Notes: generated by a model not told the origin, from the letters alone. DNA of 12,497 nucleotides from a virus (IMGVR_UViG_2859799533_000004), one strand, 5' to 3'; shown: positions 1 to 12,497, numbered from the stretch's first letter. Program-made: numbers and translations.

Positions 1-1230
1 ATGAGCAGAGCACTTAACAAACTGAGCGATACACAGCTGAGGAAAATCAACGGCACACCCGCCCAAAAAACAGCCTTTCTTAATGACGGTGGAAACCTGA
101 GCGTCAGGCATTCAACCAGCGGCCTTTTAACCTGGTATTTCACCTACAGGGCCGGAACGGGAAGGGGAGCACGACCGGAACGGATTAAGCTGGGAAATTA
201 TCCTGATCTGAGTCTGAAAGCTGCCAGGGAAAAAGCGGCACAGTGTCGCGCTTGGCTTGCTGAGGGGAAAAATCCACGTCATGAGATGAATTACACCGTA
301 CAGAAAGCGTTAAAGCCCGTAACGGTTGGCGATGCGCTTACCTACTGGCTTGAGTCTTACGTAAAGGAAAACCGCGTGGATTATGCCGCCCTGAAAAAGC
401 GCCTTAATAATCACGTAATACAGCACATTGGTGCTATGCCGCTGGATAAATGCGAGCTACGGCACTGGCTGGCCTGTTTTGACCAGGTGGCAAAGCGAAC
501 GCCTGTTACTGCCGGATTCTTGCTACAGACGTGCAAACAGGCGCTTAAGTTCTGCCGGAGGCGGCGCTATGCAATCAGCAACGTTCTTGATGATATGAGT
601 GTGGCGGACGTTGGGAAAAAACCGGATATAAGCGAGCGTGTCTTAAGCACCAAAGAACTTGGCGAATTATTGCAGGCACTGGACAAAAAAATATTTTCCC
701 CTTACTACGTCGCACTAATCCGCCTCCTGATTGTTTTCGGATGCCGGACGGTAGAACTGAGGTTATCGGAGATCAGCGAGTGGGATTTTACCGAAATGCT
801 CTGGACCGTGCCGAAAGAACACAGCAAAACGAAGGTGGCAATATTCCGGCCCATACCGGAAGCAATACTGCCGTTCGTCACGCAGCTGGTGGAGCAGAAC
901 AGGCACACGGGCTTATTGCTGGGGGAAGTGAAACAGGAAACAAGCGTGTCGCAGTACGGCAGATTAGCGCACAGGAGGCTAAAACACCCTCACTGGTCAC
1001 TGCATGACATCCGGCGCACCTTTACAACGATGCTGAACGATTTAGGCGTGGATCCTCACGTCGTGGAGCAGCTTACAGGTCATCAGATGCCAGGGATGCA
1101 ACGAGTCTATAACCATTCCCGTTATCTGGATGCGAAACGTGACGCGCTGGATATGTGGACGGAGCGGTTAGGGATACTGGCGGGAACACATGAAAACGTA
1201 ACCACATTGCCAATAGCCAGAGAAATATAA
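1..1230 (+). CDS. int: Tyrosine-type site-specific integrase, P4 family (N-terminal arm-binding domain plus C-terminal catalytic domain)
   Basis: Full 409-aa ORF. N-terminus has the P4-integrase arm-binding pattern (LNDGGNLSV...WYFTYR...IKLGNYPDLSLKAAREKA). C-terminus carries catalytic motifs HDIRRTF (HxxR), LTGH and VYNHSRY (nucleophile Tyr). Confidence 0.92.
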   Translation: MSRALNKLSDTQLRKINGTPAQKTAFLNDGGNLSVRHSTSGLLTWYFTYRAGTGRGARPERIKLGNYPDLSLKAAREKAAQCRAWLAEGKNPRHEMNYTVQKALKPVTVGDALTYWLESYVKENRVDYAALKKRLNNHVIQHIGAMPLDKCELRHWLACFDQVAKRTPVTAGFLLQTCKQALKFCRRRRYAISNVLDDMSVADVGKKPDISERVLSTKELGELLQALDKKIFSPYYVALIRLLIVFGCRTVELRLSEISEWDFTEMLWTVPKEHSKTKVAIFRPIPEAILPFVTQLVEQNRHTGLLLGEVKQETSVSQYGRLAHRRLKHPHWSLHDIRRTFTTMLNDLGVDPHVVEQLTGHQMPGMQRVYNHSRYLDAKRDALDMWTERLGILAGTHENVTTLPIAREI

Positions 1231-1264
1231 TTTTTTTTGCGATTTTTCAGGATGCGGACAACGT

Positions 1265-1312
1265 GAAACAACGAGACACAACGACGAACAACAAGGAACA
1301 AAATGGAACAAC
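1265..1312 (+). repeat. Five helically phased (~10 bp) direct repeats with ACAAC core; candidate AlpA/Xis-type or integrase arm-type binding array
   Basis: Read directly: GAAACAAC(1265) GACACAAC(1275) GAACAAC(1286) GAACAAA(1296) GAACAAC(1306), all same orientation at 10-11 bp spacing in the int-alpA intergenic region. Confidence 0.6.
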
Positions 1313-1355
1313 GGGTTAAAAATCAGCCATCGTAATAACCATTTGATTTTTATAG

Positions 1356-1376
1356 GTGTACTGTTTTTTTATACAC
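1356..1376. promoter_or_regulatory. Dyad GTGTA-CTGT-N8-ACAC in the AT-rich alpA upstream region; resembles a LexA box with one core mismatch (CAC instead of CAG)
   Basis: Sequence GTGTACTGTTTTTTTATACAC read directly; 5-bp inverted arms GTGTA/TACAC. Regulator identity is not established. Confidence 0.25.
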
Positions 1377-1511
1377 TGGCGAATCACTCTTAAAAATATG
1401 TAAAAAAGGCGTAAAAGTAAAATTTTATGCCTTTGCATCATAATGAATTAAAAGAGTTTTTATTCTCATTCCCCTGCTTCTGTAAAACGACCGCCGCCAG
1501 TGTTTGCCATT

Positions 1512-1545
1512 CCACAAACACCCTGACACAATCCGACACAACCCA
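1512..1545 (+). repeat. Second array of phased CACAA-type direct repeats just upstream of alpA
   Basis: CACAAACACC(1513), ACACAATCC(1526), ACACAACCC(1537) at about 11-bp spacing; same motif family as the 1265-1312 array. Confidence 0.45.
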
Positions 1546-1594
1546 ACCCAATAATCCACCCAATGACTCTTTAAGAAACAACAAAGGGGGAATT

Positions 1595-1783
1595 GTGTTA
1601 AGCACAGATCGCTTTATACGTGAAAAAGAATGTCAGCAACTTACAGGCCTGAGCCGCTCATGTCGGTACCGCCTGGAAAAAGCCGGACAATTCCCATCAC
1701 GGCGTAAGCTGGGCGGTCGTTCCGTTGGCTGGTCTTTATCCGAAGTTCTGGCATGGAAGGACAGCTGCGAGGCAGTTCACTAA
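1595..1783 (+). CDS. alpA: AlpA-family (P4 Vis-like) small DNA-binding regulator/excisionase
   Basis: C-terminal 62 aa of ORF 1427..1783 match the AlpA/Vis pattern (LSTDRFIREKECQQLTGLSRSCRYRLEKAGQFPSRRKLGGRSVGWSLSEVLAW). Start placed at in-frame GTG 1595 after AAAGGGGG; the ATG at 1427 would add an N-terminal extension across the repeat arrays. Confidence 0.8.
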   Translation: MLSTDRFIREKECQQLTGLSRSCRYRLEKAGQFPSRRKLGGRSVGWSLSEVLAWKDSCEAVH

Positions 1784-1835
1784 TCAGGCTGGCGGCACAC
1801 AGCCGCCACCCATCCACTAATACAGAGATCTAACC

Positions 1836-2210
1836 ATGAATACTGGATATTCTCCCGAACAAGGGCGGGGCTTCGTTCGTCCTGAAAAACAGAATCTGCA
1901 AAATTTTGCCGAAATTATTCCGGTTATTTCCGGCCTTACTGGCGGGAGTGAAACCAATATTGTTAACGCCAGAGCGTTGCAGATGTTTGATGATAAAAAG
2001 GGAGTAAATTTAACTTACACCCCTGACGGCAATCAGAATATGAGCATTATCTCTGAGTCAGGTTTCTACAAACTAATAAAAACAAAAAGCGCCCCGTTGC
2101 CGGAGCGCCTTTGTGAACAATTAACCTACTGCGCAAAAAATGAATCTGAGCAGTGGGATTATATCAACCATGTGGAGAAGCGCCACAATTGCCGAATAAC
2201 GGGCAAAACA
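1836..2210 (+). CDS. Possible Bro-N-like (antirepressor-type) protein fragment; 3' end undefined because the frame stays open to 3260
   Basis: N-terminal ~125 aa are protein-like and contain a Bro-N-like motif (DDKKGVNLTYTPDGNQNMSIISESGFYKLIKTKS). The remainder of the 474-aa ORF is Cys/Ser/Arg-rich and antisense to better-supported minus-strand genes. End coordinate is nominal. Confidence 0.3.
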
Positions 2211-2311
2211 AAGGCCACCCGCTACGGTGGCCCCTCGACACAAGCTACACGTTATCCCCAACGCATGAGCATTGCCAACAATGCCACATTTGCGGCTGGT
2301 GGGCAATGCAA

Positions 2312-2500
2312 TCAGTCTGGTTCAGTTCGTTGCCATACCTGCAATGAGCGCTTTTCCCTGTACTCTTTAAGGAATTGCTCAAGGGCAAAAGCACATGGCG
2401 CGAATCTTTCTGATTCATGCTCTATCTTTCTGCGCCGTCTTTTCCGTGCCGGTGATAATGTTTTGGTCAATTCTTTATCGGTCATTGTGTTGTCCTGCAT
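2312..2500 (-). CDS. Small basic protein (57-62 aa), second gene of the leftward pair; function unknown
   Basis: ORF with an RRRRK basic patch. An internal ATG at 2485 has a better SD (AGGA, 7-nt spacer) than the ATG at 2500. Lies 42 bp downstream of the RHH-like gene. Confidence 0.45.
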   Translation of the reverse strand: MQDNTMTDKELTKTLSPARKRRRRKIEHESERFAPCAFALEQFLKEYREKRSLQVWQRTEPD

Positions 2501-2542
2501 AGCAATGCGCCGTAATACCTTACACCACGGCGCTGATGGTGA

Positions 2543-2848
2543 TTACTCTGGTTCTTTGGTCTTGCGGCGCTGGAGTTCTTCACGTGCGACAGTGACGAGC
2601 TGCCCGATCTCCTCGGCGGCTTTGATTCCGAGTTTTTCCACCTGCGCCAGTGCATCGAGCGAAGAAACCAGGGGATTTTCTCCACTTCCTTCTGCCTGGC
2701 GCCGGGCGATCTCACCGCGTACAGCCGTAACTATAAAATTCGCTTTAGTTTCCCCTGGCTGTAGGGATGCCTCAATGCCACTCACTACTTCATGTGGAAA
2801 TCTGGCATTCAGTTGCTGTGACTTATTGTTAACAGAACTCCTGGACAT
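2543..2848 (-). CDS. Putative transcriptional regulator, possibly ribbon-helix-helix type; candidate island repressor (or antitoxin)
   Basis: 101-aa protein from ATG at 2848 with strong SD (GGAGGTG, 5-nt spacer). N-terminal pattern NARFPHEVVSGIEASL...TKANFIVTAVRGEIARRQ fits a beta-strand plus two helices. It is transcribed divergently from the main operon across the operator palindromes. Confidence 0.55.
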   Translation of the reverse strand: MSRSSVNNKSQQLNARFPHEVVSGIEASLQPGETKANFIVTAVRGEIARRQAEGSGENPLVSSLDALAQVEKLGIKAAEEIGQLVTVAREELQRRKTKEPE

Positions 2849-2891
2849 GTTTGCACCTCCCATTAATAACGGGATGCAGTGTAATACAAAA

Positions 2892-2946
2892 GTGAATACC
2901 AAAAAAGACTTGAAATGGTATTCACCTAAATGTAATGTGAATACCA
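2892..2946. promoter_or_regulatory. Operator region: three copies of GTGAATACCA forming two overlapping perfect 10-bp-arm palindromes between the divergent genes
   Basis: GTGAATACCA at 2892-2901, TGGTATTCAC at 2916-2925 (inverted), GTGAATACCA at 2937-2946; read directly. Confidence 0.6.
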
Positions 2947-2984
2947 CAAGTGCTGATACATGCAATTCAGCAATTGAAACGACG

Positions 2985-3017
2985 AAGCCCCGCACTGTTG
3001 GAGCAGTAACGGGGCTT
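2985..3017 (+). promoter_or_regulatory. Imperfect long hairpin in the leader of the rightward operon
   Basis: AAGCCCCG(2985-2992) pairs with CGGGGCTT(3010-3017), extended by CACTG/CAGT. No following T-run, so it is not a classic terminator. Confidence 0.3.
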
Positions 3018-3053
3018 CTAACCACCAACGATAACGAGAGTATCGAGGTAGCT

Positions 3054-3260
3054 ATGAGAAATCATACCACACACCCGCAAGGGCGGGACTCGCACAACCT
3101 GAATAAATACATCTGGCGTTTTATCGCCCTGAGCACTGCACAACCGCGCGTGATTACCATTGAGGCCACCAGCGAACAGGAAGCACGCCAGCAATCCCCG
3201 GCTGGCTGCGTGATGGTATTCGCTGCCCGTATTCGTCAGGAGGTGTGCCATGTGCAATAA
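3054..3260 (+). CDS. Small protein (68 aa), first gene of the rightward operon; tentatively Icd-like (P4 cell-division-inhibitor family)
   Basis: ATG 3054 with SD GAGGT (4-nt spacer). Protein-like sequence YIWRFIALSTAQPRVITIEATSEQEARQQ...VMVFAARIR. The family assignment is from memory and unverified. Its stop overlaps the next start. Confidence 0.5.
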   Translation: MRNHTTHPQGRDSHNLNKYIWRFIALSTAQPRVITIEATSEQEARQQSPAGCVMVFAARIRQEVCHVQ

Positions 3261-8892: not shown

Positions 8893-9306
8893 ATGGCAAC
8901 GAATGAAAGCATCATGACGCTACCGCTGGCGAGTAAATTTAAAGCCGAAGCGCGGGCAATGGCTGACAGAGGTTTATCAACCTACGAGGCCGTATATCAA
9001 CTCAACAAACTGGAAGAGCAGGACAAGCCGCGCGCTGATGCGATTATGGCGCTTCATGAGCATAACGACTATCAGCCGCTGTTACGTGCAATGGCAAACG
9101 TGCCTTGTATCGATGTTGGTACGGCTAAAAGCATCCTTAGCATGACCATAGAGCAGGAACGCCAGAAGGTTGCGCCGGAGCTTACCGCAGCCTTTGAAAA
9201 CTTTATGGACATGCACAGCCCGCAAGCCGTTTCAGCTGGCATGGCATACGACGGCAGAAACCCGGGCGATGATGGCGACATCGAGAGCATACTGAAAACC
9301 ATCTGA
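8893..9306 (+). CDS. Hypothetical protein (137 aa), last gene of the capsid operon, immediately upstream of cos
   Basis: ORF with GGGGGAA SD; no family recognised. Candidate packaging accessory protein by position only. Confidence 0.6.
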   Translation: MATNESIMTLPLASKFKAEARAMADRGLSTYEAVYQLNKLEEQDKPRADAIMALHEHNDYQPLLRAMANVPCIDVGTAKSILSMTIEQERQKVAPELTAAFENFMDMHSPQAVSAGMAYDGRNPGDDGDIESILKTI

Positions 9307-9311
9307 GACAA

Positions 9312-9334
9312 GGCCGGAGAAATCCGGCTTTTTT
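9312..9334 (+). terminator. Rho-independent terminator after the capsid operon
   Basis: GCCGGA-gaaa-TCCGGC hairpin plus TTTTTTT; nearly identical to the terminator at 6873-6894. Confidence 0.7.
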
Positions 9335-9420
9335 TACGGGTCCTTTCCGGCATATGGACCCGTTACGGGGCGGCGACCTCGCGGGTTTTCGCTATTTATG
9401 ACGTTTTTCCGTGAAGGTGA
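9335..9420 (+). other. Lambda-type cohesive-end site (S2): cosQ, cosN and the start of a lambda-like cosB
   Basis: ACGGGTCCTTTCCGG...GACCCGTTACG then GGGCGGCGACCT (9367-9378) CGCGGGTTTTCGCTATTTATGA matches the lambda right-end/left-end junction as recalled; followed by CGTTTTTCCGTG, resembling lambda R3. Confidence 0.85.
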
Positions 9421-9468
9421 CACCACCACCACTTGATTAATATTTAACCATGCAGTTAAGGTAACATT

Positions 9469-9909
9469 ATGATTGATAAAGCTTGTTTTGTAAGTCAGCA
9501 GGAAATAGCTGAACATTTCAAGGTTAACAGAACCACTATTCGCGCATGGACCAAACAGGGGATGCCGTATCTTAATGCGGATCGCGGAAAGTCTGGCGGT
9601 TATCACATCGGGCATACATTGCTTTGGTCTTCAGGTAAAAGCCGTCTTGAGGCCATCAGATATCACGTAGAAACCAGTGCGCTGGAAAAAATTATGTTTG
9701 CCAGGCTGCTTTCATCTGAGCGTGACGAGTACTCCAGTGAAGAAACAGAACATAGATTTGATGAAGGTTTACAGATTTACGGCTACTCACCGGAAGAAGT
9801 GAGCAAAGCGCGAAATAAAATGGCCGGCTTTCTGGCTGGGTGGCGTCATGCCGTAAGCGTTCGCCGTGCCAGCATGGAACAATCAGTCGTTACAGAACAG
9901 CAAAGTTAA
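9469..9909 (+). CDS. Small-terminase-like protein with Nu1-type N-terminal winged-HTH; candidate island packaging-specificity factor
   Basis: N-terminus VSQQEIAEHFKVNRTTIRAWTKQGMPYL parallels lambda Nu1 VNKKQLADIFGASIRTIQNWQEQGMPVL; the C-terminal half is unrelated to Nu1. Gene sits directly downstream of cos, as Nu1 does in lambda. Confidence 0.72.
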   Translation: MIDKACFVSQQEIAEHFKVNRTTIRAWTKQGMPYLNADRGKSGGYHIGHTLLWSSGKSRLEAIRYHVETSALEKIMFARLLSSERDEYSSEETEHRFDEGLQIYGYSPEEVSKARNKMAGFLAGWRHAVSVRRASMEQSVVTEQQS

Positions 9910-9939
9910 AAATCACTTTCTGTTACGCCATCAAATACG

Positions 9940-10090
9940 CAATACAACAACCACGTATTTTTTTAAAACTATTTGATTCAATTAGCATTTTTTTATTTTT
10001 AGCATCAAAAAAACACTATCAGGTTGTTGTATTGCTCTTTATTTTTACTTAGTTATCAAATGGATATGACAAACAATTAAACAACAACCT
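9940..10090. promoter_or_regulatory. cosB-like region for the inverted cos: three ACAACAACC sites in alternating orientation with an intervening partial IHF motif
   Basis: GCAATACAACAACC (9940-9953, +), GGTTGTTGTATTGC (10022-10035, inverted, perfect 14-bp IR), ACAACAACCT (10081-10090, +); TATCAAatggATA at 10054-10066 matches WATCAA of the IHF consensus but not its TTR end. Confidence 0.4.
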
Positions 10091-10103
10091 CCCTCTAAAA
10101 AAG

Positions 10104-10169
10104 CTCATAAATAGCGAAAAACCGCGAGGTCGCCGCCCCGTAACGGGCCATAATTCCAGGAAGGACCCG
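10104..10169 (-). other. Second lambda-type cos site (S3) in inverted orientation
   Basis: Reverse complement reads CGGGTCCTTCCTGG..GGCCCGTTACGGGGCGGCGACCTCGCGGTTTTTCGCTATTTATGA; the cosN 12-mer is identical to S2 (complement at 10127-10138), and the flanks are about 85-90 percent identical to S2. Confidence 0.8.
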
Positions 10170-10202
10170 ACGACACCAGACTATCAGAACGATGGGGGCA
10201 CA

Positions 10203-10484
10203 ATGACAGAAGCCGAAATACTGCGATTAATCCGCCGCGTTGCCGGAATCAGCCAGCAGGCCGACGAACAGACCACGCAGCCGGACAGCGTGACCGCCGA
10301 AAATTATGTTCGTGTGGTTGCTGAGGTGATTCGCCGTAATGGTATCCAGCTTAATGATGTGGATATGCGCAACATACGGATCCGCGTTCTTGAAATGCTG
10401 GCCTACAATCGCCGCGTGGCACTGTATCGGGAAACGGAGAAAATTACGTACCACTGGAAGAAGCCGGAGCGGTTGCGGCGGTAA
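10203..10484 (+). CDS. Hypothetical protein (93 aa), 3' accessory gene of the island
   Basis: ATG 10203 with GGGGG SD 6 nt upstream; protein-like composition; no family recognised. Confidence 0.5.
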   Translation: MTEAEILRLIRRVAGISQQADEQTTQPDSVTAENYVRVVAEVIRRNGIQLNDVDMRNIRIRVLEMLAYNRRVALYRETEKITYHWKKPERLRR

Positions 10485-10652
10485 CTGGTTGATATTTTCG
10501 AAATTCGCCAGCGGCGAACATCGGGGAAACCAGCCTAACCCGTTGATATTTTCGGGAACCTCAAATTGAAGAGGTCGGAAACATAACCCGTCATATTCTG
10601 GATGCTGATAATTACCACGCAGCCCATTAAGGCCTAACCCGTTGATTCTTCC
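10482..10652 (+). repeat. Four degenerate direct repeats of about 19 bp (TAACCCGTTGATATTTTCG) at 48-54 bp period
   Basis: Copies at 10482-10500, 10536-10554, 10584-10600 and 10635-10652, starting at the stop codon of the preceding ORF. Confidence 0.6.
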
Positions 10653-10931
10653 ACAATCCCCCATTGGGGAGGCTGGGCGGCCTGCTGTGGGCTTTTCCAC
10701 CATTGGTGGAAAGGCGCACATCTGGATCATCATTACGGTGATCAAGGGTATGTAAAACCCACCAGCCTGATTGACATTTAACCGGAAAAAAGCCAGGTAG
10801 CCCCGTTATGGGGATCCCCATATCGACATTAACGCCCCTCATGAATTGGCGCGCTTCCCCCTGGAAAGATGACCCGCCTGTATATTTCTTGTGTCTATTT
10901 GTTCCACGTTGTTTCATACAGTGCAACGATC

Positions 10932-10955
10932 GGTGTAGTTAATGGTGTAGTCAAT
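10932..10955 (+). repeat. Tandem 12-bp direct repeat GGTGTAGT(T/C)AAT
   Basis: Two adjacent copies, 11 of 12 identical, followed by a GCACT-N5-AGTGC dyad, in the region downstream of phoQ. Confidence 0.45.
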
Positions 10956-11036
10956 TTGCGATTTTTAGCACTTTTGCAGTGCAAATCATTTAATTAAATC
11001 AATGGCTTGCCTTGATGTAGTGATAAAAGGACATAT

Positions 11037-12497
11037 TTATTCATCTTTCGGCGCAGAATGCTGGCGACCAAAAATCACCTCCATCCGCGCACCGCCCAGC
11101 ATGCTCTCTCCGGCGACGATTTTACCCTCATATTGCTCGGTGATTTCGCGGGCTACCGCCAGCCCTACACCTTGCCCAGGGCGTAAAGTATCAACCCGTT
11201 GACCACGGTCGAAAATGACCTCTCGCTTGCTTAATGGAATACCGGGGCCATCATCCTCGACCACAATATAGAGATGCTCGTCGGTTTGCCTTGCAGAAAT
11301 TTCGACAAACTCGAGGCAATATTTACAGGCATTATCCAGCACGTTGCCCATCACCTCGACAAAATCGTTCTGCTCACCGACAAAGCTGATCTCTGGCGAA
11401 ATATCGAGAGAGATATTGACCCCTTTGCGTTGATACACTTTGTTCAGCGCTGAGGTGAGATTGTCCAGCAGTGGGGCGACCGGATGCAGCTCGCGGCTGA
11501 GCAATGTCCCGCCGCGCATACTGGCACGATGCAGGTAGTAGCCAATTTGCTGTGAAATGCGGCTGATTTGCTCCAGCATTACCGGCTCAGCATCACTGAC
11601 GCTCATCTTTTCACTACGCAGAGAACGCAGCGTACTTTGCAGCACCGCCAGTGGCGTTTTCAGACTATGGGTCAGGTCGGTGAGCGTCGTACGGTATTTG
11701 TCGTAACGTTCGCGTTCACTTTTTAACAATCGGTTCAGGTTTCGTACCAGACTGGTCAGTTCTCGCGTTGTGGCTGGATTGAGCAATTCGCGGTTATGTT
11801 CTTCCAGTTCGCGGACTTCTTTTGCCAGGGCTTCGATGGGGCGTAAACTCCACCAGGCGGCGACCCACAGCAGCGGGATCACTAACAGCAGATTGGCTGA
11901 GAGCACATAGATAAACCAGCTCCAGACCATATAGGAACTTTTTAGCTCCACCGGAATGGTATCCACCACCACAATGGTTAATTTTGGCATCCGCGATGTT
12001 GCCGGGTAGACGTTTACTGCCACCGAGTGGGTCATCTCCGCGTCGTCATCATCTTCCCGCACTTCCTGCAACTGTTGCTGTATCGAATGATCTCCACTCA
12101 GCAAGAGGCTGGTATCGTTAACATCCGCTTCAATTTCATGAAAACCATTCGATTTCAGCCAGTCAGGCTGGATCATCTTCATCAGCCAGGGCACGTCACG
12201 TTGCGCCCATAAAAGCTGCCCGTTCTCATCATAAATTAGCGTCATGGTGGGGCTTTGCTTGTCGATATTTTCGGGTAACTCGACATGCAACTTATTGTTT
12301 TCCCACTTCGCAAGGGTATAGAACAGATTGCTCTCGCCACGTAACAGCCGAAACGTAGTTTTATCGAAACTGACGCTATAACCGATCAGCGCGACCATTC
12401 CGTAGGCAAGCGAAAGCACCAGTACTACCGCAGCCGTTGCCAACAGAAAACGTACCCGCAGCGAGAGCGGGAAAAAAAGACGCAGTAATTTTTTCAT
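11037..12497 (-). CDS. phoQ: Sensor histidine kinase PhoQ of the PhoP/PhoQ two-component system (chromosomal flank)
   Basis: Complete 486-aa ORF recognised as PhoQ: N-terminus [41 protein letters not shown], periplasmic acidic patch [13 protein letters not shown], phosphoacceptor [11 protein letters not shown], and kinase G-boxes DDGPGIP and GQGVGLAVA. Confidence 0.97.

Follow-up and report, generated by a model that had tools for sequence, protein, structure and literature searches.

Tandem antisense copies of a putative IHF-and-palindrome element of phage roi/ant genes at the attR end of an Rpp-type phage satellite of Escherichia coli

The viral sequence IMGVR_UViG_2859799533_000004 (12,497 nt, referred to as the window in its whole length) is, on the evidence of its gene content, an Rpp-type cos phage-inducible chromosomal island (PICI), an EcCICFT073-like phage satellite inserted between roxA and phoQ of Escherichia coli. 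At its right end, a small gene, orf93, is followed by an array of units of about 50 nt (10482–10725). Alignment with phage genomes shows the array to consist of tandem, antisense copies of an element of helper-phage roi/ant genes, in which a predicted site for integration host factor (IHF) is coupled to a short palindrome, and separate units match different alleles of these genes. We give about an even chance to the reading that Roi-family proteins of helper phages, together with IHF, would bind the array, which would thus be a platform or decoy with sites for several alleles; the binding and its consequence are predictions from these sequence relationships. The right end of the island has three parts: orf93, the array, and an attR-side attP arm with two tandem putative arm-type sites, a predicted IHF site and a 10-bp core (Table 1).

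Array of putative IHF sites and palindromes downstream of orf93

A preliminary description of this region (10203–11036) reported four direct repeats beginning at the orf93 stop codon, two perfect palindromes and a tandem 12-mer. The four repeats are present, with spacings of 54, 48 and 51 nt, the first overlapping the TAA of orf93, and the 12-mer lies where it was placed. The palindrome CCACCATTGGTGG is likewise at 10697–10709 as described, whereas CCCCATTGGGG is at 10659–10669, one base away from the position first given. The array takes in the four repeats and both palindromes, the first of which belongs to unit 4 and the second to the module after it. As also proposed, 10485–11036 contains no supported open reading frame (ORF), and minus-strand ORFs of 172 and 99 aa are without support.

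The repeats do resemble protein-binding sites, and the features of the region exceed chance. There are six perfect matches to the IHF consensus in the window, against 0.35 expected, and three of these are in the repeats. Putative IHF sites, defined by a match to WATCAANNNNTTR with an A/T tract, are found at 10482, 10536 and 10635 on the minus strand, with an AAAA tract on the 5' side, and at 10997 on the plus strand. A palindrome about 17 nt upstream of the IHF consensus is present in units 1 and 4, and is decayed in units 2 and 3.

Homology of the units to phage roi/ant genes

Comparison of the array region with 50,697 phage records by blastn gave only short matches, all on the minus strand and all inside genes annotated as roi, ant, kilA or ‘DNA-binding protein’. 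For separate units, the numbers of phage records with such a match (in a roi, ant or ‘DNA-binding protein’ gene) are 16, 59 and 108, and the offset within the gene is constant (nt ~120–170 of genes of ~710–725 nt). Unit 1 aligns with nt 123–165 of a Rha-type ‘DNA-binding protein’ gene beside cro/cI in Shiga toxin (Stx) 2a phages (35/43; E 0.03 for this short query). Unit 2 aligns with nt 117–169 of roi of phage JLK-2012, and the intact version of this unit in related islands matches roi of HK620, H-19B and CUS-3. For unit 4, the stretch 10626–10665 matches roi of JLK-2012 and of Stx1a phages (87.5% over 40 nt, E 1e-3), with 31/34 over roi nt 135–168 and an identical encoded peptide, DCGRINGLGLN. 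Beyond it, 10672–10712 aligns with nt 70–110 of ant of Salmonella phage SSU5, which is the same variable segment (37/41, 90% over 41 nt, E 8e-6). Units of the longer arrays in related islands match ant of phiP27, a Stx1a ‘DNA-binding protein’ gene, and roi of HK620, H-19B, CUS-3, VT2-Sakai and HK629; the best of these unit matches reaches 91.8% over 49 nt (E 4e-10). Only the piece of ~50 nt holding the IHF site and the palindrome is present in the arrays, and the neighbouring, far more conserved roi coding sequence never is.

The products of the roi/ant genes combine a Rha-type domain (PF09669) at the N-terminus with an ANT/KilAC domain at the C-terminus. In roi of phage HK022, the sole IHF consensus is at nt 153–165 and the sequence CTGCA-T-TGCAG is at nt 131–141 (CTGCATTGCAG + AATCAATGATTTA). 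Among seven phage genes compared, five have one IHF consensus at exactly nt 153, and six have a perfect palindrome just upstream of the IHF position, each different, the palindrome of phiP27 being imperfect. Five of these six palindromes are centred at nt 136 and that of SSU5 is at the equivalent position. The comparison was extended to 80 further roi-family loci from IMG/VR (L100–L179), with 21 distinct variable segments. The IHF consensus occurs at nt 153 in all 80, and nowhere else in their first 300 nt, and a palindrome is centred at nt 136 in 17 of the 21 alleles. The sole synonymous polymorphism inside any roi palindrome is at the unpaired centre.

The element coincides with a hypervariable patch (residues 42–64) of an otherwise highly conserved domain. 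In roi/ant genes, the codons that contain the palindrome and IHF site thus specify the hypervariable wing of the Rha-type DNA-binding domain of the gene's own product, so that a change in the site could go along with a change in the specificity of the protein. An operator-like palindrome and an IHF site within such codons is an odd property of these phage genes to which the satellite array draws attention.

Clerget and Boccard reportedly found in 1996 that Roi of HK022 recognises a sequence inside the roi gene, close to an IHF site, and that its binding there is made more stable by IHF. Roi also reportedly blocks lytic growth of HK022 in IHF mutants in the same work. The related rha genes of phi80 and P22 are likewise reported to be inhibitory in IHF mutants. 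We infer that the palindrome is the Roi site. The array units resemble the internal site of HK022 roi in their nucleotide homology to the same roi/ant segment, in their order (palindrome, 17 nt, then WATCARNNNNTTR) and in having allele-specific palindromes. They differ in setting: a phage gene has one copy of the element, within the codons for the variable wing of the protein that binds it, whereas the satellite element, a putative binding site, is non-coding, multi-copy, tandem, of mixed alleles and antisense after a satellite gene. Minus-strand frames of the array are not conserved as proteins.

Recurrence of the unit in related islands

The region 3' of orf93 was cut at the repeat in 36 distinct related islands, which have between one and seven units each, and 63 distinct units were compared. 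The same architecture recurs in 32 distinct related islands: a box, TAAC-NNN-YTGAT(A/T), is followed in nearly all units by a short palindrome starting 11–12 nt on. Where the box is conserved, it follows the IHF consensus YAANNNNTTGATW, which is matched perfectly by 33/63 distinct units and with at most one mismatch by 47/63. At least 12 different palindrome stems occur, with symmetry kept in all. Examples are CCTCAA-T-TTGAGG, CCCCCA-T-TGGGGG, TTCCACAG-A-CTGTGGAA, GCGCAA-AA-TTGCGC, AGCTCAA-AA-TTGAGCT, TTCGCC-AGC-GGCGAA, GCTCA-ATTC-TGAGC and CAGCC-AAC-GGCTG.

A count free of any unit definition was made over 32 unique arrays (14.3 kb in total), with expectations from shuffles. The count was 110 minus-strand and 0 plus-strand IHF-consensus matches, against about 13 expected for each; there are 213 palindromes against 48.5 expected, and 52 IHF sites with a palindrome centre 16–18 nt upstream against 0.08, all to be read with the caution that the arrays are related and the trials non-independent. 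Even with this caution, the architecture is plain. In every array, the first unit runs over the stop codon of orf93. The region is otherwise highly mosaic, and unit copy number and order vary between islands.

The main rival explanation starts from this mosaicism. The units could be recombination scars, non-functional leftovers from repeated illegitimate or short-homology exchanges between satellites and the roi/ant genes of lambdoid phages in the same host, with a hotspot at the palindrome or at the DNA bent by IHF. Extreme variation in the number (one to seven) and order of units fits such an origin, as do the decay of units 2 and 3 in the window, the insertion sequence (IS) element right after unit 1 in L077 and the lack of an array in some islands. 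Scars would not, however, readily explain why only the IHF-and-palindrome piece is found and never the adjacent, more conserved roi sequence, why all 110 IHF matches share a single orientation, or why the junction over the orf93 stop codon is fixed. Symmetry is also kept across at least 12 stem variants, some of which have no known phage counterpart. On balance, we consider this explanation rather unlikely.

The palindromes would form hairpins in a transcript, and the preliminary description had suggested a small-RNA locus. In the form considered here, the hairpins would be stabilisers or terminators in the 3' untranslated region of the late operon, or part of a small or antisense RNA initiated at the minus-strand promoter-like site (10756 to 10729). 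The region folds better than shuffled controls (z −4.1 for the plus strand, −2.7 for the minus strand), the stems co-vary, and the promoter-like site is kept in two sequence variants; the block that contains it and an exact Chi copy (10729–10766) is kept in nearly all related islands. Nevertheless, 9300–11200 has no Rfam match, with nothing near any gathering score, and the small-RNA suggestion found no backing there. The palindrome centres of 1–2 nt are typical of duplex binding sites and not of RNA loops, terminator-type U tracts are lacking, and folding energy has no consistent strand bias (the plus strand is the more stable in 20/32 arrays). The same palindromes, moreover, lie inside protein-coding phage genes. 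A structured RNA is therefore judged very improbable.

Several other candidates were discarded. A CsrA-sponge RNA was rejected on GGA density, which equals the island background. A small hydrophobic minus-strand peptide or type I toxin (MFVVVALMVCVVIMTIQ... in relatives) was rejected because it is the translation of a palindrome; differences between its variants are all non-synonymous, and its starts and ends vary between islands. The 82-aa minus-strand ORF annotated in EDL933 by the Prokaryotic Genome Annotation Pipeline (PGAP) is a mere translation of repeated units. Resemblances to clustered regularly interspaced short palindromic repeats (CRISPR), Ter, dif, nut (boxA/boxB) and sigma-54 promoters were considered by eye only and dropped, as no match was seen.

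Other sequences were noted near the array in relatives. An IS3-family element lies directly after unit 1, about 50 nt past the orf93 stop codon, in one island (L077). Many relatives (L006, L008, L009, L014–L018) have an extra module 150–250 nt after the orf93 stop codon, which the window lacks: four GTGAC repeats about 10–11 nt apart are followed by a plus-strand intrinsic terminator, GACGTGGCCAACGTC + TTTTTT. The late operon may truly end at this module, or the module may encode a small RNA. In strain 90-3040 (L004, 2501–2813), array-like sequence is flanked by a capsid gene of satellite type and by a prophage terL that lacks its N-terminal part, as if a satellite had inserted into a late gene of a prophage (helper-embedded type).

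The orf93 gene

The preliminary description had called orf93 as an unknown 93-aa gene with a good Shine–Dalgarno sequence. This holds: the 93-codon frame starts with ATG and has GGGGG 6–10 nt upstream, and orf93 is a real, conserved, satellite-specific gene. Its product matches phrog_1561 over its full length (E 4e-54). There are 817 close homologues, nearly all in E. coli/Shigella, but only 39 representatives, mostly fragments, in a library of 1.8 billion proteins; one locus was found among 185,579 species genomes and no copy in the 50,697 phage records. The family is too narrow for a deep alignment. In Rpp-type PICIs, orf93 follows rpp and the second cos site and is always the last gene before attR; in capsid-forming PICIs (EDL933 and another strain), it directly follows terL and is again last before attR. 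This end position is held at three different integration sites.

Many viral-region predictions in IMG/VR end exactly at the orf93 stop codon (L013, L022, L027 and about 25 more loci), so that the array and attR are systematically missing from catalogued ‘viral contigs’.

It had been suggested that orf93 encodes a DNA-binding protein with the repeats as its cognate sites; such a pairing could act in autoregulation, in a partition-like role or in association with att. Several observations favour this pairing. Whatever the PICI type or att site, orf93 and the array are tightly linked, the stop codon of orf93 falls within the first box, and the basic C-terminus, YxWKKPERLRR, is kept even in the most distant members. 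However, no DNA-binding domain or fold was recognized: the product has no match among Pfam, NCBIfam, PADLOC or PDB sequences, and an AlphaFold model of three helices, of moderate confidence (predicted local distance difference test, pLDDT, 72), has no fold match by Foldseek against PDB and BFVD (AF2 model). The product has no similarity to Roi. The conserved box positions are exactly those of the IHF consensus, the same element is present in roi genes of phages that lack orf93, and there are islands with orf93 and no array. Since the repeats match the IHF consensus and the internal element of roi/ant genes, host IHF and Roi-type proteins of helper phages are better candidate ligands than the orf93 product, whose role as cognate binder we regard as improbable. 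A partition or centromere-like function, also suggested earlier, fares no better, as profile scans detected no Par genes or domains, the repeat units are non-identical and their palindromes differ.

Possible role of the array

In the interpretation that we prefer, a unit would consist of an IHF site and a short palindrome, with its centre 17 nt away, copied in antisense from the cis element of roi/ant genes, which encode Rha-type winged-helix regulators. During growth of a helper phage, host IHF would bend each unit, and the helper's Roi-family protein would bind the palindrome beside the bent site, as reported for Roi inside its own gene. The units match different roi alleles, and one satellite could therefore capture regulators of several helper types. 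The outcome might be titration of helper regulators, and so interference with the helper, or a signal of helper presence. Alternatively, the array might have an architectural role beside attP and int; it is upstream of both, on the same strand, once the island is an excised circle. An origin-like site is a further option, raised because Rha-type genes sit at the position of replication genes in some Stx phages (PMC8951638).

Several points weigh against this interpretation. Of the units in the window, 1 and 4 alone have an intact palindrome; units 2 and 3 are decayed, as would be expected if some copies at least were under little or no selection. Some islands with orf93 (L008, L018, L067) lack any unit and have a different module instead, and the ‘A-type’ units of relatives (GCGCAAAATTGCGC) have no match in the 50,697 phage records. 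The units could keep their IHF and palindrome features simply through recent copying from phage genes that maintain them. The palindrome of HK022 is itself a putative Roi site, and we know of no function of Roi in normal phage growth.

A more far-reaching proposal is that satellites carry, beside attP, multi-allelic modules of operator plus IHF site, pirated from the autoregulatory site of roi/ant genes, as a helper sensor or decoy with which orf93 cooperates. Roi/Rha-family regulators of several kinds of helper would be captured by this mimic or would use it as an origin-like site, and a decoy would interfere with helper development. This is put forward tentatively, as something we think may well not be the case. 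If true, it would represent molecular mimicry at the DNA level as an interface between satellite and helper, a mode not described for PICIs in the literature searched. That literature deals with cos, rpp, capsid genes and alpA, and no description of orf93 or of the array was found in it (PMC9026076, PMC6739421), nor any link between PICIs and Roi. How Gram-negative PICIs recognise or manipulate their helpers is only partly known, Rpp acting in packaging and AlpA in induction. The array would add a concrete point of contact between satellite DNA, the Roi/Rha regulators of helpers and host IHF. The components (IHF sites, arm-type sites, Roi site) each belong to a known kind; what is new, as far as the searched literature shows, is that a satellite has taken them up and multiplied them.

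Two comparisons may be drawn. RIP/RIB elements, in which an IHF site is flanked by repetitive extragenic palindromic (REP) sequences, are similar in that IHF sites are coupled to short palindromes and repeated. They differ in that the array has no sequence similarity to REP, its palindromes vary and its units derive from phage genes. The datA locus and plasmid iteron arrays, as titration loci, provide the concept of a cluster of sites that sequesters a regulator.

Table 1. Positions of features in the window (attR end, cos sites and att arm)
Feature	Position	Strand	Remarks
cosN copy 1	9368–9379	+	GGGCGGCGACCT; exact lambda-type sequence, 101 nt before rpp start
cosN copy 2	10127–10138	-	GGGCGGCGACCT; exact, inverted, immediately left of orf93 region
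orf93	10203–10484	+	93 aa; RefSeq hypothetical protein WP_000133413.1; last gene before attR
Unit 1	10482–10535	-	IHF consensus TATCAACCAGTTA 10482–10494, overlaps orf93 stop codon; palindrome TTCGCC-AGC-GGCGAA 10504–10518
Unit 2	10536–10583	-	IHF consensus TATCAACGGGTTA 10536–10548; palindrome 10558–10575 decayed (relatives: CCTCAA-A-TTGAGG)
Unit 3, degenerate	10584–10634	-	Box TAACCCGT-CATATT with 1-nt deletion; palindrome decayed (relatives: GGTCAT-A-ATGACC)
Unit 4	10635–10680	-	IHF consensus AATCAACGGGTTA 10635–10647; palindrome TCCCC(C)A-T-TGGGGA 10657–10670, the first palindrome of the preliminary description
Long inverted repeat	10681–10725	-	22-nt arms 10681–10702 / 10704–10725; centre CCACCA-T-TGGTGG (CCACCATTGGTGG)
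Promoter-like site	10756 to 10729	-	TTTACA-16-AATGAT; adjoins exact Chi site 10759–10766
Arm block, attR-side (P) arm	10895–10958	+	Contains tandem 12-mer GGTGTAGTTAAT GGTGTAGTCAAT 10932–10955; candidate integrase arm-type sites
IHF consensus	10997–11009	+	AATCAATGGCTTG; perfect match, between arm-type sites and core
att core	11029–11038		GGACATATTT; from K-12 empty site, attL and attR; overlaps phoQ stop codon 11037–11039

The attR-side arm and integrase sites

The right boundary was fixed by an empty-site comparison, as had been proposed. The K-12 empty site lacks 10485–11028, which is accordingly accessory island DNA, as had been supposed, and not core chromosome. Comparison of this site with attL and attR gives a core of 10 bp, and the position of the core means that 10203–11028 is all island DNA. 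The suggestion that the region is attR with decayed remnants of the target gene is correct in part: it does end at attR and the 12-mer belongs to the att arm, but there are no decayed phoQ-side remnants, the core being only 10 bp.

The attR-side arm extends over ~10895–11038. Its arm block (~10895–10958) has a second copy at the other end of the island, where it separates the attL core from the start codon of int, so that GGTGTAGTTAAT occurs twice on both the attL and the attR sides. In tqsA islands, GGTGTAGTCACT is present twice on both arms, and in tRNA-Pro islands TAGTTATACGTT is. This co-variation of the 12-mer with integrase and att type, on both arms and in three island types, identifies it as an arm-type site of the integrase at the level of sequence, to which Int would bind through its arm-binding domain (PF13356). 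The arrangement resembles a lambda-type attP in its tandem direct repeats on both arms, co-varying with the integrase, in the arm-binding domain of Int, in an IHF consensus between arm sites and core, and in its short core. It differs in having a P4-like integrase and in being targeted to the 3' end of phoQ, and not to a tRNA gene or attB-lambda.

The array is on the attR-side arm and contains three perfect IHF consensus sites, and its boxes could therefore be read as extra bending sites of the integrative or excisive intasome, an extension of the attP arm. The sites, however, lie 380–550 bp from the core, beyond the arm-type sites, and lambda attP arms reach only about 160 bp. The array is also kept in islands with unrelated integrases and arms (tRNA-Pro type), and an extended arm would leave the palindromes and the roi homology unexplained. 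We find it the hardest of these explanations to credit.

The int–alpA intergenic region contains about six copies of (G/A)AACAACG phased at 10 bp (1258–1311), a box-like sequence, TAACCCGTTG, on the minus strand (1300–1318) and a perfect IHF consensus at 1336–1348 (minus strand), preceded on that strand by an inverted repeat, GTGTA-N11-TACAC. In the att arm block, the inverse motif CGTTGTT is present as well (~10905). The motifs of this region (window 1258–1354) are probably regulatory sites or sites for Int or AlpA.

Identity and gene content of the island

A full copy of the island in strain 2017C-4173W12 has genes, in order, for an integrase, an AlpA-like regulator, Icd-like and YlcI/YnfO proteins, a RepA-family helicase, SSB, a major capsid protein, a decoration protein and two hypothetical proteins, followed by phoQ. 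Pfam and PHROG scans of the window proteins agree with this annotation. The window has the int–alpA–rep backbone of an Rpp-type PICI, a length of about 11–12 kb and a site-specific insertion that is missing from the island-free K-12 site, and its gene for Rpp, a TerS mimic, is downstream of a lambda-like cosQ–cosN. The Rpp protein is the 146-aa product of 9469–9909, which matches RppC (PDB 6hlk; E 2e-31). Gene set and order, the Rpp homologue and two lambda-like cosN sites are shared with EcCICFT073-type (Rpp) PICIs and capsid-forming PICIs such as EcCIEDL933, and orf93 and the array are at the right end in both kinds.

The two exact cosN matches, against 0.04 expected in the window, are in inverted orientation and flank rpp, and 10076–10173 resembles lambdoid cos regions. 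The cos–rpp layout has been described for PICIs (PMC9026076), and the cosN at 9368–9379 has the same spacing; EcCICFT073 likewise has two cos sites (PMC6739421). A reading of the packaging direction, and of a protective Chi orientation, from the cosN at 10127–10138 was withdrawn because the other cosN, at 9368–9379, has the layout of the functional cos of PICIs.

The 474-aa ORF at 1836–3260 (plus strand) is probably no gene. RefSeq annotation of the identical island places here two genes on the minus strand, one of them YlcI/YnfO, and a short Icd-like gene. The ORF has family matches at its ends only, to an Icd-like ‘repressor’ phrog (residues 383–473) and, weakly, to a BRO-N/Ant-like family (residues 49–88). 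Nine exact Chi sites (GCTGGTGG) are found in the 12.5-kb window, five on the plus and four on the minus strand (885, 2295, 3166, 4513, 4978, 5500, 5728, 6463 and 10759), against 0.42 expected, and 0/200 shuffles reach nine. This abundance may be an adaptation of the satellite against RecBCD.

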